Shown here: piece after piece, positions 1-60,135 of the stretch | Layout of the letters: every line of letters begins with the position of its first letter | How positions within the stretch are numbered: the stretch's first letter is position 1 | Virus record (IMG/VR): IMGVR_UViG_3300042268_000564 | DNA length: 64,000 nt | Source of the DNA: a virus | Lineage: Duplodnaviria; Caudoviricetes | Reading direction: 5' to 3' (one strand) | The notes under the pieces: generated by a model | Told to the model about the DNA's origin: nothing | Seen by the model: the letters and a program-made list of their open reading frames with translations, nothing else | Databases searched by the model: none | Position numbers and translations under genes: made by a program

Positions 1-156
1 TGTGAGGGTGTTGGTGTAGCTGTCAAAGACGTTGAACAGGCTTTTCGGTTATTAAGTGACCATGTTAAGGGGAATGTTTTTACCTTTGACTCTTATCCTT
101 CTGTTCAAAAGGCTGAAATTCCTGCGCCTGACAAACGTGCGATTGAGATGATGTAA
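1..156 (+). CDS. 3' end of a hypothetical protein (partial, ends ...AIEMM*)
   Basis: Frame 1 is open from position 1 to TAA at 154-156; the next ATG is at 158. Confidence 0.6.
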   Translation, partial: CEGVGVAVKDVEQAFRLLSDHVKGNVFTFDSYPSVQKAEIPAPDKRAIEMM

Positions 157-157
157 G

Positions 158-382
158 ATGCCAATATCGCCATCAAGCGACCGAGCCACATTGTCCGAGA
201 TTCGAGTTAAGATATTAGCCGATTTATTCCAAAATGGATGTATTTCAAAACATTCATTGTTGGATTTTATGGGTTTTGAGGGTTTTAAAGGGATGAAAGC
301 AAACTGTTGTTTTATTGATGATTGCTTTGAGTTCGGCAATAATAGACGTTCTTTGGAAGAGCAAGTTTGGGATATGTTGTGA
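158..382 (+). CDS. hypothetical protein ending ...QVWDML*
   Basis: ORF in an overlapping-gene operon; stop overlaps the next GTG. Confidence 0.6.
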   Translation: MPISPSSDRATLSEIRVKILADLFQNGCISKHSLLDFMGFEGFKGMKANCCFIDDCFEFGNNRRSLEEQVWDML

Positions 383-678
383 CCAAAAATTTTGACATTG
401 ATATTGTTGGTGAATTGGATTCCTCTGCCAGAGCCGAAATGCAGAAAGATGCAGAGGATATTATTGCTGCAAGAAAAGAAGCAAAGCTCAGACAAGAATT
501 TCCAGACGAGTATGCGACTACTGGTTATGTTGATGTAGCAGCGCAAGGTTTAACATTTATATCATCTAGTGCAGTGCCTGCATTGCCGCAAGCGGGAATG
601 GCGTATTATGATAATAATACAGGCAATATCCATATTTTTGATGGGAAAGATTGGCAGACATTAGCCTCTACGCCATGA
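379..678 (+). CDS. hypothetical protein with N-terminal FDIDI motif and a tail-fibre-like C-terminal motif
   Basis: GTG start overlaps the upstream TGA; PALPQAGMAYYDNNTGNIHIFDGKDW resembles the G-x-x-YY-D...DG-x-x-W motif of phage fibre proteins. Confidence 0.6.
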   Translation: MTKNFDIDIVGELDSSARAEMQKDAEDIIAARKEAKLRQEFPDEYATTGYVDVAAQGLTFISSSAVPALPQAGMAYYDNNTGNIHIFDGKDWQTLASTP

Positions 679-893
679 AAAACTTTGATATCGAGTTGGC
701 AAAAGAGTGTAATGCTGCTGCCGACAAATTACTGAGAGAGCTTGCAGCAGACATAATTTTGAAAAAAAGTTTATTCCCAAGCTTGACAGAGATAAATCTT
801 GAAAGCGGTATTCCAGCTCCAGTGAATAATAAGTGGAAATTTGTAGATTGGGCAAGTCCTATAATTATCCATAGAGGGAATGTCGATGTTTGA
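675..893 (+). CDS. hypothetical protein (MKNFDIEL...)
   Basis: ATGA overlap with the upstream gene; N-terminus resembles its neighbours. Confidence 0.55.
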   Translation: MKNFDIELAKECNAAADKLLRELAADIILKKSLFPSLTEINLESGIPAPVNNKWKFVDWASPIIIHRGNVDV

Positions 894-1257
894 CATTGAT
901 TTCGTTAGAGAGAATGATAAAGAGTTGCGTGATGCAATAAGGGATGAAATGTCCAAGATTTCCAAGCCAAGTGAACCTGAATTTGAGGAAGTGAATTTTA
1001 AGGGGCATCACCCTATTGTATTTCTTAATGGCGTGATGCAGATAGAGGGAACTGATTATGAACCTGTAATGTCGCCGGATGGGACTTTTACGGGGATTAC
1101 TTTAACTACTTTCCCTGATGCTAATGATGAGCTTATAGTTAAATGGATTGATACAGACGACAAGGCTACCCCGCCCGTCGAGACGATGTTCTTTGCTTGT
1201 GTTCGAGGACGAGATATGAAAATTAATAGAATTCTATTTAAGGATTATAAAATATGA
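880..1257 (+). CDS. small beta-sandwich (virion/fibre-type) domain protein
   Basis: VFLNGVMQIEGTDY...ITLTTFPDANDELIV matches a common V-x-NG-x-x-Q-x-x-G-x-DY phage structural module. Confidence 0.55.
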   Translation: MSMFDIDFVRENDKELRDAIRDEMSKISKPSEPEFEEVNFKGHHPIVFLNGVMQIEGTDYEPVMSPDGTFTGITLTTFPDANDELIVKWIDTDDKATPPVETMFFACVRGRDMKINRILFKDYKI

Positions 1258-1610
1258 ACGTGCCAATAAAAATTAAACAAGATATCAAAGTTTTATATTT
1301 GCCAAAAGACAGGCTGCTGAACGGAGAATATGAAATAGAATTTTATCAAAATGGTCTATTGTTAAGTCTTGGCGAGGAATATAAATTAGTGCTGAGAGAC
1401 ACTAAACTTTACGCTGAATTTCTTTATCCTAATGATGGCGATGTGTTCAAAATGAGAATCCAGAGTCGTGTTATTGATAGTTCTAATTTTGGAGCTTATA
1501 TCTGTTGCTCGATGTTTTGTAAAAGATTTCATAACAAATCTAACTTGTTTTTTTCAGGGATTGTGTTAATAGATGATGAAATAGCTAATATTGAAATGGA
1601 CTTACTCTAA
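1254..1610 (+). CDS. probable paralog of 880-1257, ending EMDLL*
   Basis: FYQNGLLLSLGEEY...YPNDGDVFKM aligns by eye with the neighbour's motif. Confidence 0.5.
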   Translation: MNVPIKIKQDIKVLYLPKDRLLNGEYEIEFYQNGLLLSLGEEYKLVLRDTKLYAEFLYPNDGDVFKMRIQSRVIDSSNFGAYICCSMFCKRFHNKSNLFFSGIVLIDDEIANIEMDLL

Positions 1611-2797
1611 TCCATTAAGCAAAAATCCAGCTCATTATCATAGAATTTTTTAATTCTATTCTCTGCAATCTTTACATATTCAGGGCTAAGTTCTATTCCG
1701 ATAAAGTTTTTATTTTGCTCCATTGCTACGATACCAGTAGTCCCAGAGCCAAAGAATGGGTCGAGCACGGTTCCACCTTCAGGACAGCCAGCAAGAATAC
1801 ATGGCGTTATTAATTCACGAGGATAAGAAGCGTAGTGTTTTTCATTATTGCCTTTAACAGCAATTGTCCAAACGTCTCTGCGATTGCGCATCTCATCTAC
1901 GTGCCTTTTCCCTAATTCCTTTAGACCATCTTTGTTGTGTCCGCCACATTCTGACCAAGTGAAATGATTTTGTCCGCCGGGCAGGTCACCAGCTCTTACT
2001 GATGGCTCTTTGATTGCATCATTGTTGAAATAATATTTTGGCTTTTTGCTGAAAAGGAAAATGTATTCGTGAGCACGGCTACAACGGTCTTGAACTGATT
2101 CAGGCATTGGGTTCCCGCTCCAGCCATGTTTGCAGGCATCGCCAGAAACACCTTTTGCCCAAATGATGTCTTGACGTAAAATCCAGCCATCATCTTGTAG
2201 TGCAAATGCCACCCTCCAAGGAATTCCCAACAAATTCTTTGCAGGCAATTCTTTGGTCGTTTTTGTTAAGGTACCAGTTGTAGAACCTTTATTTGTTTTT
2301 TGCATCTCAGAGCCGACTATTGAACCGTCGCTCATCATTCCCTTACCACTGCCAGCATAAGAATCACCTAAATTGAGCCATAAAGTGCCTGATGGTTTTA
2401 ATACCCTACGTATCTCTCTGAATACCACAGTGAGCTTTTCAAGGTATTCTTTCATTGTAAATTCAAGACCAATTTGTTTGTCGATTCTTTTTGCGCCACA
2501 TTTCTCACAGATATCTTTGTAATAGTAGCCATCTATTTTTGTTTCTTCTCGACTCGGACGATTTTGATTAAACTCAGGATTGCCAAATTTCTTTGTTCTT
2601 GTTGGGTCAGCTACGTGGTCGCAATCAAGCGAACCACCCTCCCACGTAGACGTTCCATAATCACGAAGCCCAAGGTAGGGAGGCGAGGTTACACAGCAAT
2701 CAACAGAGTTGTCTGGTAGTTGTTTTAAGACCTCTATGCAGTCACCGTTGATGATGGAGTTGGGTTCAATCGTGGGTGTTGTAGTGACGTTTATCAT
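1607..2797 (-). CDS. DNA methyltransferase, beta class (N4-C/N6-A)
   Basis: Catalytic CVTSPPY near the N-terminus; SAM-binding DPFFGSGTTG near the C-terminus. Confidence 0.93.
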   Translation of the reverse strand: MINVTTTPTIEPNSIINGDCIEVLKQLPDNSVDCCVTSPPYLGLRDYGTSTWEGGSLDCDHVADPTRTKKFGNPEFNQNRPSREETKIDGYYYKDICEKCGAKRIDKQIGLEFTMKEYLEKLTVVFREIRRVLKPSGTLWLNLGDSYAGSGKGMMSDGSIVGSEMQKTNKGSTTGTLTKTTKELPAKNLLGIPWRVAFALQDDGWILRQDIIWAKGVSGDACKHGWSGNPMPESVQDRCSRAHEYIFLFSKKPKYYFNNDAIKEPSVRAGDLPGGQNHFTWSECGGHNKDGLKELGKRHVDEMRNRRDVWTIAVKGNNEKHYASYPRELITPCILAGCPEGGTVLDPFFGSGTTGIVAMEQNKNFIGIELSPEYVKIAENRIKKFYDNELDFCLMD

Positions 2798-2838
2798 TTA
2801 AACATATCCAATTCTTCAAATTTGTATACTTTTGCCAT
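2794..2838 (-). CDS. 14-aa micro-ORF MAKVYKFEELDMFK (tag-only peptide or gene remnant)
   Basis: ATG at 2838 with GAGGT upstream; TGA overlaps the ATG of the 1607-2797 MTase. Confidence 0.35.
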   Translation of the reverse strand: MAKVYKFEELDMFK

Positions 2839-2878
2839 ACAATCGTTTACCTCTGCTATACAATCTTGTTCATTTTTT

Positions 2879-2924
2879 AATTTTGTTCACAAAAAATGAA
2901 CAAGCATTTTTTGTGAACAAAATT
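2879..2924. repeat. perfect 20-bp inverted repeat with 6-nt loop
   Basis: AATTTTGTTCACAAAAAATG-aacaag-CATTTTTTGTGAACAAAATT. Confidence 0.85.
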
Positions 2925-4348
2925 TAATCGAACATGTCTATTTCTTGCATTTGAATAGCAGGGAATTGACTATTGCTGGACAGGGGAACTTTTTCTTTTT
3001 TATGAACATTAGCCGTAGCGCAGGTTTCATTGGCTACAATCTCAAGTCTGGCTTTTGCAGTGCCGAATGATTCCTTTTCTTTCTCAATACCAATAAAATA
3101 TCTACCTTCCATCAAGCAGCCAATGCCTGTAGAGCCACTTCCCATAAATGGGTCTAATACAATGCCCCCAGTTGGCGTTTTTGTTAATTTAGCAAGGTAA
3201 GACATGAGGTTGCGATTTTTTACAGCAGGATGTTTGTTTTCTACTTGTCCATCGCACGTCCTATCTCGTTTTGAGGCTTTCGCACAATAATAGAATCTTG
3301 CAATGGAGCCTGAATCGCCATGTTGGTTTTGCGGGTTGCTTTTACCTCGCAAGAGGGTGGTGTTGCTGTCGCCATCATAAGCATTTACATCTTTCTTTGT
3401 TGCACCTGATTTGGTTTTGCCATATTTATTAAATTCTTGCATTACATCATCAGAGCCGTCGTGAATCACGTTACTGGGGAAACGACCATTCTCGCTATTT
3501 TTTATGATTTGTTCAGGAGGGAGTATGGGACTGACATTGAAATCAATATTTGCACTTTTGTTTGTTTTCACACTTTTAAAGCTGTGCCTTTTTTGTTCAT
3601 ATTTTTCTCTGTCAGATAGACCTATTGGCACTCTGCACTCCTCAATGTTTAAGCCAGCCACACCCCATTTAAGAGCATTATCAACATAACTGCCCTCATT
3701 AGGCTTCGTCATTACCAAAATTGGCTCAAAGGCAGGTTTAAGTGCGTGACTATGCCAACCATTCCATAGTTCGGCTTCAGGACTTGCTGGTTTTGTAATT
3801 TGGATAACATTGCCATGTTCATTGTAGTTATTAGGTCTATGTCCTTGTACCACATTTGCTTTGTTGACATTTGCCATTCCGCCAGACTTTGTAATGGTCT
3901 CAGATATAACCTCTCGTTCAAGCCCTTTTGTCTTGTCTATTTTTTTTGAAATGTTAAGCGATTTGGGAAATCCTTCTGAGTGAAGAAAGAATATACAATC
4001 CTTGAATGTAAAGCCTGCGAGCTGCATAGAGATTGCCATCAAGTCGAAGGTTCTAGTCCCAGCAAATACCAGCGCAGTACCTCCCGGCTTTAAAACACGA
4101 CAAACTTCTTTCCAGATAGCAGGAGGTGGAACGCTGCTGTCCCATTCTTTACTCATAAAACCTTTAGCCCCCACTTTGTCGGCAGAATGTTGTCCCAAAT
4201 CAAGCCATTCCTGTAACAAGCCAGCGAGGTCTTTTATCTCGCCTAGCCCGTATGGTGGGTCGGAAATTACAGTGTCGACAGAGTTGTCGTCCATTTTTTT
4301 AAGCTCGTCGTAACAATCGCCGTGGATGAGTTGGTATTTTTCCTGCAT
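2924..4348 (-). CDS. DNA methyltransferase, beta class, large insert; ends QEIDMFD*
   Basis: ISDPPY, HPAVK and DPFMGSGSTG motifs. Confidence 0.93.
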   Translation of the reverse strand: MQEKYQLIHGDCYDELKKMDDNSVDTVISDPPYGLGEIKDLAGLLQEWLDLGQHSADKVGAKGFMSKEWDSSVPPPAIWKEVCRVLKPGGTALVFAGTRTFDLMAISMQLAGFTFKDCIFFLHSEGFPKSLNISKKIDKTKGLEREVISETITKSGGMANVNKANVVQGHRPNNYNEHGNVIQITKPASPEAELWNGWHSHALKPAFEPILVMTKPNEGSYVDNALKWGVAGLNIEECRVPIGLSDREKYEQKRHSFKSVKTNKSANIDFNVSPILPPEQIIKNSENGRFPSNVIHDGSDDVMQEFNKYGKTKSGATKKDVNAYDGDSNTTLLRGKSNPQNQHGDSGSIARFYYCAKASKRDRTCDGQVENKHPAVKNRNLMSYLAKLTKTPTGGIVLDPFMGSGSTGIGCLMEGRYFIGIEKEKESFGTAKARLEIVANETCATANVHKKEKVPLSSNSQFPAIQMQEIDMFD

Positions 4349-7485: not shown

Positions 7486-7695
7486 ATGCCAGACAGCCGA
7501 AAAGAAAAACTGTTGCAAGCCCTGATTGATGAAAGGGCACGTCTTTTGAACAGTCGAGGAGCTTCTACTGAGCATGATGCTGCAATAGAATACTTGCAGA
7601 CAGGCAAAACAGATGTAAGCCCTGACGATGATGAAATGCTCTATGCGGTGATGGAAGATTTTGACTGCATATGCAGCGACTACGGGATTGAATAA
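7486..7695 (+). CDS. hypothetical protein
   Basis: GAGGTG SD; follows a promoter. Confidence 0.65.
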   Translation: MPDSRKEKLLQALIDERARLLNSRGASTEHDAAIEYLQTGKTDVSPDDDEMLYAVMEDFDCICSDYGIE

Positions 7696-10892: not shown

Positions 10893-12062
10893 ATGGAATT
10901 CAAAACAAAACATGCTTATGTCTTATTTGGCAATGCTTTACAACGATTAAAAGAGATTCCTGACGAATCCGTACATTGCTGTGTCACAAGCCCCCCTTAT
11001 TATGGCTTGCGTTCATATTTGCCTGACGAACATCCTGACAAGGTGGATGAAATTGGGCTTGAACAATCACCAAAAGATTATATCAATAATTTGGTAATGA
11101 TTTTCAGGGAAATTAGACGTATTTTGCGACCCGACGGCTCGGTCTGGGTGAACATAGGTGACTGTTATGTAGCTGGGAAAGGGACAGCAAGCCCTACAAC
11201 TACAGATAGCAAAGCTTTGTTAAAAGAAATGAATGTAAAGCCGAAAGATTTGCTTGGAATCCCTTGGATGTTGGCTTTTGCCTTAAGAGATGATGGGTGG
11301 TATTTGCGTCAAGAAGTCATTTGGTCAAAGGTTTCTGCAATGCCTGAATCAGTGACTGATAGATTTACAAAAGCGCATGAACAAGTGTTTCTTTTGACAA
11401 AAAATGCGAAATATTTTTTTGATAATGAAGCGGTAAAAGAGAAGGCTGTATCGAATAAAAAAGGTTCCAGAGTATTTGGCTCAAAAGAACAAGTTGGAAC
11501 TTTAAGAAATGATATAGGCAGAGAATTTGTTGATAATGGCAAGAGGAATAAACGGTCAGTCTGGCATATTGCACCTGAATCGTATAGTGGGGCACATTTT
11601 GCTGTTATGCCAAAGAAATTAGTAGAGCCATGTATTCTTGCAGGCACGTCCGAAAAGGGATGTTGTTCTGTTTGCGGGAATCCTATTGTTAGACTTACAG
11701 AAAGACAAGTTGCAACATCAAAGTCTTGTCCTAAAACAGAAGAGGCACACAAGGCTAGAGGCGGTCAAGGTGAGCCTTCTGGTACCGTGGGGAAGTCGGG
11801 CAGTGGAAGGGTTGACGGTTATACTATAACGGTTGGATGGGAGCCAACATGTAGTTGTGGCAAAGGAATTTCGCCATGCAAAGTAATAGACCCATTCGCT
11901 GGCTCTGGAACTGTTGGCGAGGTTGCCTTGAAGTTTGGACGTGATTTTGTCGGCATTGAGCTTAATGGTGAGTATTATTCTTTAATAGAGAAGAGATTGC
12001 AAGAGGCAGAGCTTGTGGCAAGCATGAAAACAGTGAGCTACGAAGAATTGGAAATGGAATGA
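10893..12062 (+). CDS. DNA methyltransferase, beta class; ends YEELEME*
   Basis: CVTSPPY, HFAVMP and DPFAGSGT motifs; paralog of 1607-2797. Confidence 0.93.
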   Translation: MEFKTKHAYVLFGNALQRLKEIPDESVHCCVTSPPYYGLRSYLPDEHPDKVDEIGLEQSPKDYINNLVMIFREIRRILRPDGSVWVNIGDCYVAGKGTASPTTTDSKALLKEMNVKPKDLLGIPWMLAFALRDDGWYLRQEVIWSKVSAMPESVTDRFTKAHEQVFLLTKNAKYFFDNEAVKEKAVSNKKGSRVFGSKEQVGTLRNDIGREFVDNGKRNKRSVWHIAPESYSGAHFAVMPKKLVEPCILAGTSEKGCCSVCGNPIVRLTERQVATSKSCPKTEEAHKARGGQGEPSGTVGKSGSGRVDGYTITVGWEPTCSCGKGISPCKVIDPFAGSGTVGEVALKFGRDFVGIELNGEYYSLIEKRLQEAELVASMKTVSYEELEME

Positions 12063-28313: not shown

Positions 28314-29675
28314 ATGATTGAATGTAAAGATAGTTTAGAATTTTTGAAAGAACGCCAAGACTATGAGAATGATATAATTTTCGCAGACCCACCATATGCA
28401 CTTGGCTCTGAGATAATGATAAGACCTGACGGTAAAGTAGATTACAAAAAAGCCGCTGATTTTATGGGCAAGTGGGATATGCCCACAGGTGATTGGTGGG
28501 AACAGTGGTTTAAAGAAGCTTTCAGAAGCTTAAAGCACGGTGGTTATTGTATCTTATATGGTGTAGACCGCCAGTTACTTCTTTTTAAGTATTATGCTGC
28601 TTTAGCAGGTTTCATAGAACAGCAGAGCCTTTATTGGGCGTTTCTTAGTAATTTCCCAAAATCGGTTGACTTGAGCAAGATGCTTGATAAACATTATGGC
28701 TGCGAGCGAGAGGTTATAGGCAAATGTTTTGATGGCAAAGGTTCTGATAGTGGCAGTGGAATCTATGCCATGAATAATGGTGAATCGAACCTCGGAAAAG
28801 AATATGATATCACTGCCCCCTCTCATGAATTAGCAAAAAAATATGATGGTTATAAATACAGCATATCACCTCTAAAACAAACCAACGAAACTGTAATGGT
28901 CTTTCAAAAGCCATATAAATCAGGCTCTTGCTTGCACGATACGTTGGCTTATGAAAACGGCGACAATACTTGTTGTTGTGGTGCGTTAAATATTGATGGA
29001 AATAGAGTTGCTACTGATGAAGAGCTTGGCAGGCAACAGGATAAAAGTCCTTTACCGCCAGAAAAAGGGTTTAATAATAATAGTATTGGTGGTAAGTTTC
29101 AGGCAGGAAATCCAGCAGGACGTTTCCCTGCACAAACCCTTGTTGACTCGAAAATGGCTAAAGCATTAGACAATCAAACTGATTCGGCTGATGGTGCTTC
29201 AAAATTGTTGCATATTTGTGACTTTGAATCAGATGAGCTTGAGCTTTACTATTATGAACCAAAGGTAAGCAAGAATGAACGTGACGCAGGTCTGGAAGAA
29301 CTCGACCCAACAAATGCTAATAGGAACAAAGCTGCTTTAACCGCAGTGGAGAACAGAGAAGCGTCAAGTAAAAATCCACATCCAACATTGAAACCATTGT
29401 CTTTGAACTTCCGTATTTTGAGCCTGTTTAAAACGCCTAACCCGCAGCGAATTTGCTTCCCTTTTGCTGGCAGCGGCTCAGAGGTTATCGGGGGCATTAA
29501 GGCAGGCTTTACAGATTGGACGGCGTGTGAGCTTTCGCAGGAATATGTAGATATTGCGATGAAGCGTATTGAATATTATTCAAAAGGTGCGCCGGAACGC
29601 AAGGTAATAAAAGCTGTTGATGCCGATGGTAATGAAAAGAAAGTTATCGTTGAGCAATTGGATATGTTTGAATGA
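28314..29675 (+). CDS. DNA methyltransferase, beta class, large insert; ends EQLDMFE*
   Basis: FADPPY, HPTLKP and PFAGSGS motifs; paralog of 2924-4348. Confidence 0.9.
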   Translation: MIECKDSLEFLKERQDYENDIIFADPPYALGSEIMIRPDGKVDYKKAADFMGKWDMPTGDWWEQWFKEAFRSLKHGGYCILYGVDRQLLLFKYYAALAGFIEQQSLYWAFLSNFPKSVDLSKMLDKHYGCEREVIGKCFDGKGSDSGSGIYAMNNGESNLGKEYDITAPSHELAKKYDGYKYSISPLKQTNETVMVFQKPYKSGSCLHDTLAYENGDNTCCCGALNIDGNRVATDEELGRQQDKSPLPPEKGFNNNSIGGKFQAGNPAGRFPAQTLVDSKMAKALDNQTDSADGASKLLHICDFESDELELYYYEPKVSKNERDAGLEELDPTNANRNKAALTAVENREASSKNPHPTLKPLSLNFRILSLFKTPNPQRICFPFAGSGSEVIGGIKAGFTDWTACELSQEYVDIAMKRIEYYSKGAPERKVIKAVDADGNEKKVIVEQLDMFE

Positions 29676-30433
29676 ATGCAATTTATCATGCTGATTGTTT
29701 TGAGATTTTCCCAAAAATTGAATCTCAATCAGTGCAATTAATCTTGTGCGATTTACCGTATAACACAACTCAATGTTCATGGGATTGCATATTGCCTCTC
29801 GACAAACTCTGGCAAGAATATGAGCGGATTATAAAGCCTAATGGCGCAATTGTGTTAACGGCGGCTCAACCATTCACCAGCGAGCTTGTAATGAGCAATA
29901 AAAAGCTTTTTAAATATGAATGGATTTGGCGCAAAACAAAAGCACAGCATTTTGCTCAGGCACCATATCGTCCCATGACGAACCATGAAAGTGTCTTGGT
30001 ATTTTCCTTTGGCGGCACAGCTAAAAATGCTAATAATCGCATGAAATATAATCCGCAGGGAATTGTAAAATGCAATATTACTTGCAAAGGGAAAAAGGCT
30101 ACGCATTCAGAACACCGCAGTAGGTTAACAGACCAAGATGATTATGTTCAGGAATACACTAATTATCCGAAAACGGTGATTGATTTCGCAAATGAGGGGA
30201 AGACTATTCATCCGACACAGAAACCTCTTTCTTTATTCGAGTATATCATAGAAACATATACTGACGCAGATGACTTGGTTCTTGATAATTGTGCAGGCTC
30301 GTTTACTACTGCTGTCGCCTGCATCAACACTGATAGACGATATATTTGCATAGAGAAAGAGCAAAGATATTTTGAACTTGGCAAAGAGCGGATTGATTCG
30401 CATGTTCGAGAATATGATATGTTTAGTGATTAA
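29672..30433 (+). CDS. DNA methyltransferase, beta class; ends EYDMFSD*
   Basis: LCDLPY, HPTQKP and DNCAGS motifs. Confidence 0.92.
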   Translation: MNAIYHADCFEIFPKIESQSVQLILCDLPYNTTQCSWDCILPLDKLWQEYERIIKPNGAIVLTAAQPFTSELVMSNKKLFKYEWIWRKTKAQHFAQAPYRPMTNHESVLVFSFGGTAKNANNRMKYNPQGIVKCNITCKGKKATHSEHRSRLTDQDDYVQEYTNYPKTVIDFANEGKTIHPTQKPLSLFEYIIETYTDADDLVLDNCAGSFTTAVACINTDRRYICIEKEQRYFELGKERIDSHVREYDMFSD

Positions 30434-31237
30434 ATGACAAAATTCCAATGGACACCAGAGCTGGAAGTAAAAGTCCTTGCCTTGAAAAAGCGAGGTTTAA
30501 CTTTTGCTCAAATAGCGGCTGAAATAGGAACCACAGAGCGTAGTGCAAAACATAAGGTTAGACGCTTAAGACAAGCAATGAATCAAGATAGGTATAAACA
30601 TACTGACGAGAAATTGAAGCAAATACAAATTGCAGGATTAACACCTTGCCGCCGGATTTTGGAAACTCACGCAGGGTTCGGTGGTTTAACAAGACATTAT
30701 GCGCAGGTGGCAGCCACTGTGACAAGCATTGAAATAAAGCAGGAACGAATTGATGAGATAAAAGCTTTGAGCTTGCCTAATGTGGAGCTGATTAAAGGTG
30801 ATTCTGAAGTTGAGATTTATCGTCTGTTGCACGAACGTAGGGTTTTTGATGTGATAGATGTTGACCCTTATGGTTTGCCAAGTCGATATTTCCCTCATAT
30901 TTTTGGGTTGATTGATGACGGTATATTGTTCTTAACATTCCCTGTAATGGGTGTTGCGCAGATTAATAAGATGACGATAGCTCATTATCGTGTTTTCTGG
31001 GGGATAGAATTATCTGACAAAGATGTTTATCTGGATAAAATAAAGGCAAGGCTTGCAGAATATGCGTTTATGCACAAACGGCAAATAGAAATTCTTGATG
31101 AGAAGCGAATCAATAGAATCTACAGGCTGGCTATTCAGGTAAAGAAAACATCATTGCTCGACATGCTTGGGCTTAAGGTGAATCGGAATAAAAAGATTGT
31201 TACAAAACAATATGAAGAAATGGACATGTTTGACTAA
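30434..31237 (+). CDS. HTH-fused class I SAM-dependent methyltransferase with Trm1-like motif; ends EEMDMFD*
   Basis: WT.E...GLTFAQIAAEIGTT (HTH); LETHAGFG; FDVIDVDPYG. Confidence 0.8.
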   Translation: MTKFQWTPELEVKVLALKKRGLTFAQIAAEIGTTERSAKHKVRRLRQAMNQDRYKHTDEKLKQIQIAGLTPCRRILETHAGFGGLTRHYAQVAATVTSIEIKQERIDEIKALSLPNVELIKGDSEVEIYRLLHERRVFDVIDVDPYGLPSRYFPHIFGLIDDGILFLTFPVMGVAQINKMTIAHYRVFWGIELSDKDVYLDKIKARLAEYAFMHKRQIEILDEKRINRIYRLAIQVKKTSLLDMLGLKVNRNKKIVTKQYEEMDMFD

Positions 31238-31743
31238 TGGGAATAGGTAAAAACAACGACTTTACGAGTAAAAAAGTGGAATACAGCACGCCTCTAAGCT
31301 TGTTCGTCCCTTTGAAAGATGAATTTGATATTACGGTAGACGTGTGCGCTGATGAAACTAATTTTAAGTGTGAGACATATTTTAGTGTCGATGACGATGC
31401 TTTAAGGCAGGATTGGACAGGGAACTGCTGGATGAACCCCCCGTTTACAAAAGATTTGAATAAATGGGTACGTAAAGCAAGAAACGATGCGAATGAATTT
31501 GGCGGGACAAAGGTTTGTCTTGTTCCAGTCAGGTCGAACACAAAGTGGTGGGGTGAGGTAATTGAAGACGCGGAAGTTAGATTTATTATTGGCGAGGTAA
31601 ATTTTAATGATGAGCCTAGAGGACTGTGGTTGCCAATGTGTATATTGATTTTCGGCGAAAAGGCAAAAGCGGGAAAGTTTTCTACCATTTATTATAAAAA
31701 AAACACGCAAGTTAAAAATAATGAAATGGACATGTTTGATTAA
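31237..31743 (+). CDS. phage Dam-type N6-adenine DNA methyltransferase; ends NEMDMFD*
   Basis: YSTP..F, VDVCA, DAL.QDW, CWMNPPF, LVP.R..TKWW. Confidence 0.88.
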   Translation: MGIGKNNDFTSKKVEYSTPLSLFVPLKDEFDITVDVCADETNFKCETYFSVDDDALRQDWTGNCWMNPPFTKDLNKWVRKARNDANEFGGTKVCLVPVRSNTKWWGEVIEDAEVRFIIGEVNFNDEPRGLWLPMCILIFGEKAKAGKFSTIYYKKNTQVKNNEMDMFD

Positions 31744-32720
31744 TGGCAGGGATAGAAGACCGTATAACAAACTATGATGGTCAGCATTGCTGGCAATATG
31801 ACATTCGATTGCGGAACCGTGACGAAGACATTGCCGAGTCTGGCTTGTCGCTTGACGAGATAGCAGCTTTAAGGTGTTCAGATTTTACTTTGCAACAAGA
31901 ACCAAAAGAACAGAGCCATCACGAGATAAAACGATTCATTGAACGACACGAATGGCTTGGCACGATGCCACTTTATGCAACCCACTATTTTACGGCAAGA
32001 TACAAAAACATCCTTGCAGGCGTGGTAATTATGGGTTTGCCCGGTAATTTTTCTAAGTTGCTTGGCAAGAAGTCTGAAGACCTTGAGCGTTTAATTAGTC
32101 GAGGTGCTTGTGTTTCGTGGTCGCCAAAGAACCTTGCGAGTAATTTGATTTCGTTTGCGATGAATTGGATGGTTCAGAATACAGAGTTTCGATTATTCAC
32201 TGCATATAGCGATACTGAAGCAAAAGAACTGGGAACAATCTACCAAGCATGTAATTTTTATTACTTGGGCAAGATTGCTGGTGCTACTTGGCAATATAAG
32301 TTGCCTGATGGAAAGCTAGTCTCTGACAGGCACTTTCGTAGTAGAAGTGTTTACAAAAGGCTCGCAAAAGCTGCTGGAATCTTTTGGGAAGCAAGTTGGC
32401 AGACCAGAGATACGGTACATCTGGATAGGATGCCTGACGAGGTTGCTTTTATTCTAAGGCAGATGTCGAAAGATTATCAAAATTCCTGCGAACGTAGGAA
32501 AATATCGGCAAAACATAAATATGCCTATGTTTTGGGTAGAGACAAGCGAGAAACAAAAGCTTTACGGCGTGAATTTGAATCAAGAAACAAAACATTTCCT
32601 TATCCAAAAGATAGATTGTCGCATGTTGAGGAACAAGTAGAATTTGAGGCACCTCTTGAGAATAAACTGGACGATGTTTTATTAAAGCCTGCCTATACAG
32701 AAGTTGACATGTTTGAATAA
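31743..32720 (+). CDS. Mom-like (GNAT) DNA modification protein; ends TEVDMFE*
   Basis: IERHEWLG, LISRG, PKNLAS.LIS, AYSD...GTIYQACNFYYLG, KHKYAY. Confidence 0.75.
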   Translation: MAGIEDRITNYDGQHCWQYDIRLRNRDEDIAESGLSLDEIAALRCSDFTLQQEPKEQSHHEIKRFIERHEWLGTMPLYATHYFTARYKNILAGVVIMGLPGNFSKLLGKKSEDLERLISRGACVSWSPKNLASNLISFAMNWMVQNTEFRLFTAYSDTEAKELGTIYQACNFYYLGKIAGATWQYKLPDGKLVSDRHFRSRSVYKRLAKAAGIFWEASWQTRDTVHLDRMPDEVAFILRQMSKDYQNSCERRKISAKHKYAYVLGRDKRETKALRREFESRNKTFPYPKDRLSHVEEQVEFEAPLENKLDDVLLKPAYTEVDMFE

Positions 32721-32843
32721 AAAAATAAAAAAAGTGTTGACATGGAATAAGGTTAATGGTAATATTAATTTGTTGCCACTCACACATGCGAGTGGATGGT
32801 AATTAAGCTGATTAAGCACACGTAGGAATACGAGTTCTTTGAC

Positions 32844-33648
32844 AAATGAATAGGTTAAAATCGAAAAAGCTCTGAAGCTGTAGATGAGTAAAATCATTGA
32901 CCCAACGCAATACGGGGAACGGAGAAAACACTCCGAATAGGCTTTCAAGGTGATTAGCGTCACCCCGACACCTATTACAGTTTTCAAGAGAAAAGAAAGC
33001 ATGACGCTGGCATGTGTTAGATTACGTGCGAATCGTAACTTCTCCTTGCCTCTGATTAAAAATCAGGAAGCACTCTTGCAATCGCCTTGCCTTTTTTCGG
33101 AAAGAAAAACGCAAAGCACTGGCTTGCCAGTGTGGAGTAGATTGATATTTGCTCAACTTTTTATAGGCAAAGTTGCCTTTCCTATGAAAATGAGATTCAA
33201 AGATAATGTGATATGCAGATATTTGCGGGTGAAGATGTAAGATGTGGTAGTGTTAAAAACATCCTTAAGCAAGATGCCATAACACTTTCATGTGAGTATT
33301 GGGGTTTCACAGACATTAGGACGCTCTGCGACCCGATGGATTTTGCTCTCGAAAGAGAGATTGCTGGCAATAGCAATAAACTATCACTGGTTTCTAAACG
33401 CATAAATCTTATTTACTAACATTAATGAGATTGTGATTCTGTGGACATGCTGCGACGAACAGCCCTACAAAGGAAGTAGGTTAAAAAGAGAACGAAGCGG
33501 ACTTGCAAGTTAATCCTGCTTGCAAAACAAGCTCTTTATGTGATTGTGATACTATCATAATAGAGTCAAAGTCTGAGCCTCATTCGTAAAATTTCGATTT
33601 GCATTAAATTGCAAAATGCAAGTATACCCGACTGCTACCTATTCATTT
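32844..33648 (+). ncRNA. large (~805 nt) ornate structured ncRNA, GOLLD/ROOL-like class, identity unverified
   Basis: 12-bp closing helix AAATGAATAGGT/ACCTATTCATTT; many hairpins with GAAA, GCAA and CUUG loops; boxA-like GTTCTTTGACAA at 32834; terminator after; no credible ORF. Confidence 0.8.
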
Positions 33649-33657
33649 CAGCCTATT

Positions 33658-33697
33658 AAAAGCCTGAAGCTCACACCTTCAGGCTTTTATTTTTTTT
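33658..33697 (+). terminator. rho-independent terminator closing the ncRNA
   Basis: AAAAGCCTGAAG-ctcacac-CTTCAGGCTTTT followed by a T run. Confidence 0.85.
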
Positions 33698-33788
33698 AGC
33701 TTTTTTGTGTCTATCTCGTATTGCGATATGCGATATCGCAGTTGTAGGGCTGATATACGCAATTTGCGAATAGCGAATAAAATTTTAT

Positions 33789-33816
33789 TTGACAATGTTA
33801 TGGCTCTGTTTATAAT
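33789..33816 (+). promoter_or_regulatory. sigma70-type promoter, 16-bp spacer
   Basis: TTGACA-N16-TATAAT. Confidence 0.8.
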
Positions 33817-33847
33817 AAAAACAAGATAGGATAAAAGGAGCCAAGCG

Positions 33848-34144
33848 ATGAAAGTTTTGCTGGTTAAACCGAATAAAGAGCCTGAAGTGGTAGAGATTGA
33901 GAACAGCCTTGAAGCCATGCAGCAGGTAGTAGGTGGCTTTATTGAAGTTACTTATCCTGATGGCAATGCAGGGGTTCTTATTTGCAACGAGGAAGGTAAG
34001 CTTAGAGGGTTGCCATTCAATCGAGATATAGGGCATGACATTATTGTTGGGGACTTCTTTATTTGCTCAAGTGATATGCAGGGGAATTTCATTTCTTTGC
34101 CTGATAAGTGGATTGAATACTACAAAAAGATGTTTGCATTGTAA
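33848..34144 (+). CDS. DUF3846-like protein
   Basis: LEAMQQVVGGFIE...ICNEEGKLRGLPFNR...IVGDFFI. Confidence 0.8.
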   Translation: MKVLLVKPNKEPEVVEIENSLEAMQQVVGGFIEVTYPDGNAGVLICNEEGKLRGLPFNRDIGHDIIVGDFFICSSDMQGNFISLPDKWIEYYKKMFAL

Positions 34145-58499: not shown

Positions 58500-59200
58500 C
58501 AATACTACTATAACTACCATAACCAAACATAACCATAACCAAACATAATCCCCCCCCTACTTCCTACTTGACACTTCCTTGACTTTGAGTATATAAAAAC
58601 CGCTTATTATAACGAAATCCACGCTGTGTCAAGTATATTTTTTTATTCAGGGAACAAAGCTGATATATCAATGCATATCGCTCATATCTGCACCACGCAA
58701 GCCCCCTCAATACCTCATAAATGCAATATCTAAGGGTTCCGCCATATCAAGGTAGCGTAAACAATGATTATAACAAGTAATTATAGCATTCGAAAATAAG
58801 CGTTTTTTGAGGGTAACTGCGGTAATTTTACCACACCCTGTAATCCGCATCAGCAGCGGGTTTAGAGTGTATCGCATTTATAATACACCGCATGAATAGC
58901 GGGTTTGCGGGTTATCGTTATTCTGATAATAGGGCTAAAAGTGAGGTATTTTTACCACAGTTTTTAGGTTAAAATTTGTGGAATTTCGTCCGAGTTCAGG
59001 CGTTCGGTTGTAATTTATGATTAGATTTGATGGATTTTGAGGAGATTGTGAAAAGATTTGTTGGATATGGCGCAAAACAACACGTCGCTATTGATGGGGC
59101 TTTGCAATATATCTGTCGGGGGTTGAGATGAATGTGAGATGGGGTAGTTTTGGAATATTTCACAAAGTTTAGATATGAAATGATTTGACAATATGGGGGT
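58500..59200. other. non-coding hub at a strand-composition switch (candidate packaging start, genome end or replication origin/terminus)
   Basis: A/C-rich left side, G/T-rich right side; (CATAACCAAACATAA)x2, C run, inverted and direct repeats; flanking gene blocks converge. Confidence 0.5.
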
Positions 59201-59212
59201 ATTGGTTATAAT
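59185..59212 (+). promoter_or_regulatory. promoter, 16-bp spacer
   Basis: TTGACA-N16-TATAAT. Confidence 0.75.
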
Positions 59213-59392
59213 GTGTAATGATATAGAATGGACAATGTAATTATGCTGTTGAATCTTATGATTCTTGTATTAGCAGTATAGTTGCAGGCTGAAAGAAGTT
59301 ATGTCTTTACATTATTCTTTCTGACGCTATAGGTGGTTCAGGGAGGGTTTTCCGAAATTTACCTTCTTGATAGCTGTTAGTGGTGACATATT

Positions 59393-59427
59393 AAAAAGAG
59401 CCAGCAAGTTTCCTGTTGGCTCTTTTT
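59393..59427. terminator. bidirectional terminator
   Basis: AAAAAGAGCCAGCA...TGTTGGCTCTTTTT. Confidence 0.8.
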
Positions 59428-59597
59428 GTTTTTAGGGCTTTCCTGATGATTTGGTTGGATGAAAGGTGTTTTGATGTGACAGGGAAGATTCGGGTTGCGT
59501 GTCGAGGCTTTAATTAGGTATAATAAATATTGACATAGCGCTTTGAGTGTTTGTTGGACTCGAAGACGTTTAAAGAGACAGGTGGCTGTCTCTTTTT

Positions 59598-59855
59598 TTA
59601 TAGTTCAGTAAATTCACTTTCGAGCTTGGATACGGTATCTTTGATATGTTGTTCAAAGAGATTTGCCAGCTCTACAAGGAATTTGCTTGTATCGTCTTTA
59701 ACGATGTCATTGCATGGCAAGTGTTGGGCACACATGGCAATAAATTCCCTGAGTTGAGTACCAACTGCATTCGCTTCCATCTTTTCCTGTAAATCCTTGT
59801 ATCTAGCGATTGCTTGCTGGATTGCCTGAGCTTTATTAAATGTTTCTTGATTCAT
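59598..59855 (-). CDS. hypothetical coiled-coil protein
   Basis: AGGT SD; hairpin 59572-59599 follows the stop. Confidence 0.6.
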   Translation of the reverse strand: MNQETFNKAQAIQQAIARYKDLQEKMEANAVGTQLREFIAMCAQHLPCNDIVKDDTSKFLVELANLFEQHIKDTVSKLESEFTEL

Positions 59856-60135
59856 AATTTACCTACTTTGTGAAATTTTTAAGAGAAATGTTACAAAATA
59901 ACACTCCTTTATTGATGGGGGTTAGCGTTATATCTGTCGTCGGTGGAGATACGGTTATGTTTTATTAATTTTGGATTTTTCACAAAGTCTCTTGTGAGAG
60001 TATCCGAGTATAAAGCCGATTCCGTAGAATATGGTAAGTTTGAGTATTTCGTATAGGAGTTCTTTCATAGCTCTGCGTATTCCTGTTGAAGGTCTTGAAG
60101 TTTATTTTTGTTTATGTATTGGAGTTGTTCGTCAG

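Follow-up and report, generated by a model that had tools for sequence, protein, structure and literature searches.

Ribosomal RNA operons of bacteria carry leaders in which boxB precedes boxA, and the logic of these leaders is that an untranslated transcript is shielded from Rho while its ends are paired, with more than 17 bp needed in the helix formed by the 16S leader and trailer (PMC10250234). In the gamma-proteobacteria, the boxA consensus reads GYTCTTTAANA (bioRxiv 10.1101/091223). The nut sites of phage lambda carry the two elements as boxA-boxB and depend on N. Among large RNAs, GOLLD and ROOL are phage-associated, and the functions of these two and of OLE are unknown (PMC12286853, PMC5737381).

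Here we describe a locus from an uncultured phage of ~398 kb (longest contig, 398,427 bp) that can be compared with each of these systems. Our analysis covered a 64,000-nt stretch of phage DNA, referred to below as the window, and centred on a gap of 1,127 nt (32721-33847) between a Mom-like gene and a DUF3846 gene (Table 1). In our preferred reading, to which we assign a probability of roughly 0.55, the gap specifies a stable untranslated phage RNA whose synthesis relies on Nus-factor antitermination and whose ends pair to close it, a description that would cover a single large RNA as well as a set of RNAs from a shared transcript.

Transcription signals and genomic setting

The DNA-modification operon upstream of the gap consists of four methyltransferase-like genes and the Mom-like gene (PF25680), and no terminator was seen in the sequence between the Mom-like gene and the RNA unit. 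The DNA methyltransferase load of the window is unusually high for 64 kb (1607-4348 on the minus strand, 10893-12062 and 28314-31743 on the plus strand), comprising three phrog_67-type, two N6_N4, one Dam-like and one HTH-fused methyltransferase-like gene, and a TnpB/Cas12f-like gene (PF07282; 26716-27918, minus strand) lies just upstream of the modification operon. Elsewhere in the window, GC skew and AT skew both flip in a gene-poor stretch at 58533-60135, and a candidate sRNA of ~170 nt has a perfect TTGACA-16-TATAAT promoter at 59185-59212 followed by a 15-bp terminator at 59392-59428.

Table 1. Features of the gap and of its immediate flanks, in window coordinates.
Feature	Position	Strand	Details
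Mom-like gene	31743-32720	+	Pfam PF25680, E = 2.3e-12; final gene of the DNA-modification operon
Sigma-70-type promoter	32737-32765	+	TTGACA 32737-32742, 17-nt spacer, TAATAT 32760-32765, TG upstream
5' leader hairpin CCACTC/GAGTGG	32772-32803	+	Pair probabilities 0.60-0.85
Outer leader strand GCTGA	32807-32811	+	Predicted by cofolding to pair with 33648-33652 over 5 bp; probability 0.86
BoxB-like hairpin CGTA-GGAA-TACG	32821-32832	+	Probability 0.90; one base 5' of boxA
rrn-type boxA GTTCTTTGACAA	32834-32845	+	Single exact copy in 64 kb
Leader strand	32844-32866	+	12 bp, 2-nt bulge, 9 bp
Non-coding helix-rich cargo	32867-33591	+	~725 nt
Self-contained cargo domains	32914-33045, 33074-33242, 33307-33444, 33499-33574	+	From the predicted helix list
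Trailer strand	33592-33652	+	33592-33600, 33637-33648 and 33648-33652; 36-nt insert with small hairpins
Intrinsic terminator	33657-33697	+	13-bp stem with 7-nt loop (33657-33689), then T-run
DUF3846 operon promoter	33789-33816	+	Perfect TTGACA, 16 nt, TATAAT; separate from the promoter of the RNA unit
DUF3846 gene	33848-34144		Downstream neighbour of the gap

Seventeen nucleotides past the Mom stop codon, the TTGACA that a preliminary description of this DNA had picked out at 32737 is joined by a 17-nt spacer, a TAATAT and an upstream TG, which together give a sigma-70 promoter with an extended -10 that agrees at 10 of 12 positions. Transcription from this promoter is predicted to start near 32772, with a leader of ~60 nt. 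The same description had proposed a CCACTC/GAGTGG leader hairpin and a terminator, both of which we recovered, the first inside 32772-32803 and the second as a strong hairpin followed by a T-run, and promoter and terminator bracket the gap exactly. Since the DUF3846 operon possesses a perfect promoter of its own, the RNA unit is self-contained and is not the leader of that operon. With promoter, leader hairpins, boxA, closing stem and terminator all found, the idea of a stand-alone non-coding unit holds.

What had been described as a sequence similar to the antitermination boxA is an exact rrn-type GTTCTTTGACAA that is unique in the 64 kb, agrees with the gamma-proteobacterial consensus given above at 10 of 11 positions and survives comparison with a real 23S spacer. 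It is placed after the promoter and before the leader strand that is complementary to the trailer beyond the cargo.

Pairing of the leader with the trailer is predicted to involve three helices. The 12-bp helix between 32844-32855 and 33637-33648, which the preliminary description had regarded as the closing stem, is indeed present and is perfect; nested within it is a 9-bp helix (32858-32866 with 33592-33600), and outside it lies a 5-bp helix (32807-32811 with 33648-33652). Of 2000 shuffles, 3 produced a perfect complement of at least 12 bp between the two terminal stretches of 130 nt, and cofolding of leader and trailer yielded -34.4 kcal/mol as compared to -20.3 +/- 2.9 kcal/mol with shuffled trailers (z = -4.9). 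The classic substrate of RNase III is a continuous duplex of ~20 bp. Because a 36-nt insert splits P1 from P2, the locus lacks a duplex of this kind, and this counts against our preferred reading.

Coding potential, fold and relatives of the cargo

The cargo region is non-coding. Each of the six frames (260 codons) contains at least nine stops, the period-3 signal of the gap is 0.63 versus 4.5-12.6 in the adjacent genes, and recoding TGA, TAG or TAA as sense opened no long frame. No convincing Shine-Dalgarno site was found before any start codon or ORF in the gap, and its longest ORFs, of 96 and 68 aa, have no Pfam match. The 68-aa ORF was called as a gene by JGI; when searched against two protein collections, one of 5.8 billion clusters and one of 1.8 billion representatives, it retrieved just itself and low-complexity noise, and it is spurious.

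Compared to dinucleotide shuffles, the cargo sequence folds with z = -5.7 on the plus strand and z = -7.0 on the minus strand. Set against the other segments of the same genome, its fold is ~1 to 1.7 SD better, and its minimum free energy (MFE) residual after GC correction (-1.06 SD) ranks 10th among 92 same-size segments, 91 of them from elsewhere in the genome; the segment starting at 58801 leads all 92 in GC-corrected folding energy. Folding energy by itself would not single out the cargo, and the word "ornate", which had been applied to this RNA, is overstated for a fold that rises just modestly above the genome's own background. The base-pairing ensemble differs between the strands, with 181 pairs of probability greater than 0.8 on the plus strand and 118 on the minus strand, and the plus-strand count is the highest of 31 same-size segments (30 controls, 110 +/- 41; maximum, 179). 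Tetraloop hairpins occur at twice the density of the genome background, and enrichment of GNRA loops is not significant (P = 0.23). A predicted long-range helix between 32908-32913 and 33296-33301 (probability 0.55) would tie domains together, and no internal duplication, repeated unit or repeated closing stem was found in the cargo. Judging from these predicted ensembles, it is plausible that the cargo RNA is well folded on the plus strand; the MFE rank, the GNRA result and the minus-strand z-score nonetheless count against our preferred reading.

At the level of individual helices, most of the local hairpins named in the preliminary description (CGGAG/CTCCG, GGTGA/TCACC, CACTGG-CTTG-CCAGTG, CTCTC-GAAA-GAGAG, ATTGCTG-GCAA-TAGCAAT and CCTAC/GTAGG) belong to the high-probability set, at 0.93-0.99. 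The GCTTG/CAAGC hairpin is out-competed by pairing of 33504-33510 with 33518-33524. Three proposed long-range pairings, namely TGAAGCTGTAG/TTACAGTTTTCA, 33244/33631 and 33226/33626, the last two of which cross one another, find no support in the ensemble, where local helices of higher probability or the closing stem are their competitors.

None of the catalogued families includes the cargo. Across the whole window, Rfam 15 returned nothing at gathering score and only terminator look-alikes at E <= 10 with permissive filters. GOLLD, ROOL, OLE, raiA, HEARO, introns, RNase P, tmRNA, 6S, rRNA and tRNA are excluded at the sensitivity of their Rfam models. Membership of GOLLD (RF01998) or ROOL (RF03087), which had been raised as a possibility, found no support in this check, as neither covariance model reached its gathering score and both families were absent even at E <= 10. 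ARAGORN detected no tRNA at its default, 90% or 80% thresholds, and none is present in the 64-kb window.

Searches for relatives of the cargo were similarly unproductive. The gap gave no blastn match to PLSDB plasmids or INPHARED phages, and nhmmer, run against 80 Mom-bearing IMG/VR loci together with boxA-bearing, metagenome and genome loci, recovered the identical copy only. BLAST across 54 whole phage records gave chance matches only, and exact or gapped patterns drawn from motifs in the body of the cargo picked up no viral, metagenome or genome contig. A covariance model, R1, which had one sequence of the domain at 33307-33444 as its sole input, scored 173.9 bits on itself and found nothing in 54 records or 73 loci. 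Four other metagenome contigs carry the locus, all of them 100% identical, and this constancy speaks for our preferred reading. The cargo is nevertheless known from one phage, with no diverged homolog in any of the collections searched, which speaks against it. Mom homologs at the shortest distance (64-74% identity) have genes directly downstream and no such gap. In more distant Mom-bearing jumbo phages the Mom gene is followed by tRNA arrays, and where relatives have a long gap after this gene it proved to hold tRNA arrays (L014, L010 and L001) or an AT-rich spacer (L015). Another protein encoded in the window has no IMG/VR relative.

The boxA frame in other genomes

The succession of promoter, boxB-like hairpin and boxA in the window is that of a bacterial rrn operon, as is the immediate passage from boxA into a strand complementary to a distant trailer. 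The 23S spacer of contigs L172 and L173 is near-identical to the window's GTTCTTTGACAA-n-TGAATAG, and L172 has, upstream of its 23S gene, a boxA identical to the window's own. In both contigs ~165 nt separate boxA plus GTGAATAG from the 23S gene that follows, and directly after boxA come bases that pair with sequence just past the 23S 3' end. Over boxA and the bases that follow it, 19 of 21 positions are the same in the window and in the 23S spacer of a Pirellulales MAG. The rrn operon also differs from the window in several respects: the window cargo is not rRNA and has no SSU or LSU match, its helix is shorter and interrupted (12 + 9 + 5 bp), and the unit is phage-borne and monocistronic.

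Among genomes of 185,579 species, just four contigs, all from Planctomycetota MAGs, contain the exact 21-mer of the window, which spans boxA and the start of the leader strand, and at the 23S rRNA locus of two of those four genomes GTTCTTTGACAAGTGAATAGCGG stands ~165 nt before the 23S 5' end. As matches of sequence, these may offer a weak hint as to the host range of the phage. In L167-L170, which are Planctomycetota MAG contigs, the exact 21-mer sits in the ~250-nt 5' UTR of a prepilin-like gene (e.g. L170 4769-5020), within a region that is near-identical across MAGs assigned to different orders, and the 23S spacers of these genomes have GTTCTTTGACAAGTGAATAG.

A second point of comparison comes from a phage tRNA operon that is built like an rrn operon (L107; IMGVR_UViG_3300001598_001135, minus strand, positions 126-3025). 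Here a TTGACA-17-TATAAT promoter and a leader of ~70 nt are followed by boxA GTTCTTTGACAA, a 19-bp leader strand, 14-15 tRNAs and a complementary trailer 2.75 kb away. The window shares its consensus promoter, its GTTCTTTGACAA, a leader strand that starts from the end of boxA and a trailer after the cargo, and differs in that 0.72 kb of uncatalogued RNA without any tRNA takes the place of 14-15 tRNAs over 2.75 kb. The presence of the same boxA and leader-trailer geometry at a 23S gene and at a phage tRNA operon supports the preliminary claim that the RNA is transcribed like an rRNA.

The resemblance to GOLLD, ROOL and OLE (RF01071) lies in a size class of 600-800 nt, many hairpins and a closing helix. 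Unlike these RNAs, which rest on hundreds of covarying homologs, the window cargo is a single sequence with no covariance-model match, and whereas GOLLD and ROOL often adjoin tRNA genes in phage genomes, the cargo has no adjacent tRNAs. The likeness to lambda nut sites would be that the boxA RNA of a phage loads host Nus factors, but the window has the rrn-like order of boxB then boxA, implies no N-like protein, and would direct antitermination to a non-coding RNA rather than to downstream genes.

The frame is also found in a wider range of phages. The extended motif GTTCTTTGAMAA-n-TRAAYAGG was found in 45 IMG/VR contigs. BoxA-bearing sequence stands beside tRNA arrays in L106, L120, L127 and L016, and in other phages it forms perfect inverted repeats of 23-29 bp around single small protein genes (67-247 aa), a setting that counts against our preferred reading of the window. 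Since the frame of boxA and paired leader and trailer also surrounds tRNA arrays and small protein genes, it tells how an RNA is made and does not in itself denote one giant RNA. On these sequence comparisons the frame appears to be a general expression and processing module, and what is unusual in the window is a cargo of ~725 nt that neither codes for protein nor consists of tRNA.

Two further observations concern the motif in these phages. In other large phages, boxA-like motifs lie before or inside tRNA arrays at 7569 and 8212 in L016, at 10792 in L106 and at 8319 in L120. In IMG/VR contigs L118, L126, L135/L146, L123, L139, L122, L142, L144 and L157, whose GC content runs from 24% to 64%, small genes (67-247 aa) that stand singly a short way downstream of a promoter are enclosed by inverted repeats, which measure 14-29 bp and are perfect in many cases; the boxA motif falls within the repeat in most, and in L122, L144 and L157 the repeat begins just after boxA. 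The inverted repeats around small protein genes may be either RNA processing stems or DNA-level terminal repeats.

Interpretation of the locus

In our preferred reading, transcription, Nus binding, processing and folding of the cargo would proceed as follows. Host RNA polymerase would initiate near 32772, and the nascent leader would display the boxB-like hairpin and the rrn-type boxA. By analogy with known antitermination, boxA would recruit NusB-S10 and, with NusA and NusG, polymerase would become resistant to Rho, which without such protection would be expected to stop a 0.9-kb transcript uncovered by ribosomes. Once the trailer had been made, the leader strand 32844-32866 would pair with the trailer at 33592-33648 and close a multi-domain RNA of ~725 nt into a loop before the terminator is reached, and the closed ends may protect the RNA, mark its ends for trimming, or both, as in rRNA and tRNA operons. 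As for what the cargo does, our guess, drawn from the analogy with GOLLD and ROOL, is that it works during infection as a stable RNA of a structural or decoy/scaffold type. More specifically, the cargo could be a single ~0.8-kb RNA of a new class that is made, folded and end-closed by the host rRNA machinery and serves as a scaffold, an RNA-only assembly or a decoy, a proposal that we advance tentatively.

The next most likely explanations are an operon of small RNAs and a decayed cargo. The former, which we regard as possible though doubtful, holds that one transcript is cleaved into a number of small RNAs (sRNA, tRNA-like or Y-like modules) and that there is no single 0.8-kb RNA. The division of the cargo into self-closed domains of 75-170 nt would suit such an operon, as would the 14-15 tRNAs held by the L107 frame and the tRNA arrays that occupy the post-Mom gap in relatives. 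However, even the 80% ARAGORN threshold yielded no tRNA, no small-RNA family appeared at E <= 10, neither the closing stem nor the unit is repeated, and the 32908-32913/33296-33301 helix links the domains, albeit with a probability of only 0.55.

More doubtful still is the view that a functional frame surrounds what is left of a decayed gene or tRNA array, without a function of its own. That boxA-bearing helices surround small protein genes (67-247 aa) in other phages, that the cargo is an orphan and that its folding energy is unexceptional for the genome are all consistent with decay. Yet no frame keeps a coding signal (at least nine stops in each, with no period-3 signal), the longest ORFs lack a Pfam match, no tRNA remnants were found, and none of the other segments among the 31 has a base-pairing ensemble so well defined, in a type of genome that is under strong pressure to delete junk.

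The complementary arms could also act as DNA rather than as an RNA helix, for instance by bounding a small non-autonomous mobile element as its terminal inverted repeats or by marking a replication or packaging site. Both long-range helices are perfect and free of G-U pairs, the fold z-score is strong on both strands, and perfect 23-29-bp inverted repeats with the boxA motif around single genes in other phages would be in keeping with this view. We nevertheless consider it quite unlikely, given that the flanks show no target-site duplication, the 12-mer arm has no second copy in the window, the left arm falls in a conserved extension of boxA found ahead of 23S rRNA as well, the repeats are framed by a promoter and a terminator, GC skew has no inflection at the locus, and high-confidence pairs are more numerous on the plus strand (181) than on the minus strand (118). 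Least likely of all is a highly diverged GOLLD, ROOL or other RNA from one of the large families already catalogued, which would account for the similar size, phage setting, closing stem and many hairpins but is contradicted by the lack of any Rfam 15 match in the window at gathering score, the absence of these families even at E <= 10 with permissive filters and the lack of nearby tRNA genes.

Returning to the reading of a stable, end-closed and antiterminated phage RNA, its expression would mean that the phage borrows the complete toolkit of an rRNA operon, boxA antitermination together with leader-trailer closure, for an RNA that is neither rRNA nor tRNA, and orphan large phage RNAs would gain a concrete and testable route of biogenesis. 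If the cargo were in addition a single RNA of a new class, it would join GOLLD and ROOL as the third kind of giant phage RNA, and its route of biogenesis would be defined; were it a decoy, its targets would be host RNA-handling or defence factors. Dozens of unrelated phage contigs contain the 21-nt boxA motif, before tRNA arrays and around single small genes, and a search that combines boxA with end pairing could therefore find stable-RNA cassettes in viral metagenomes.
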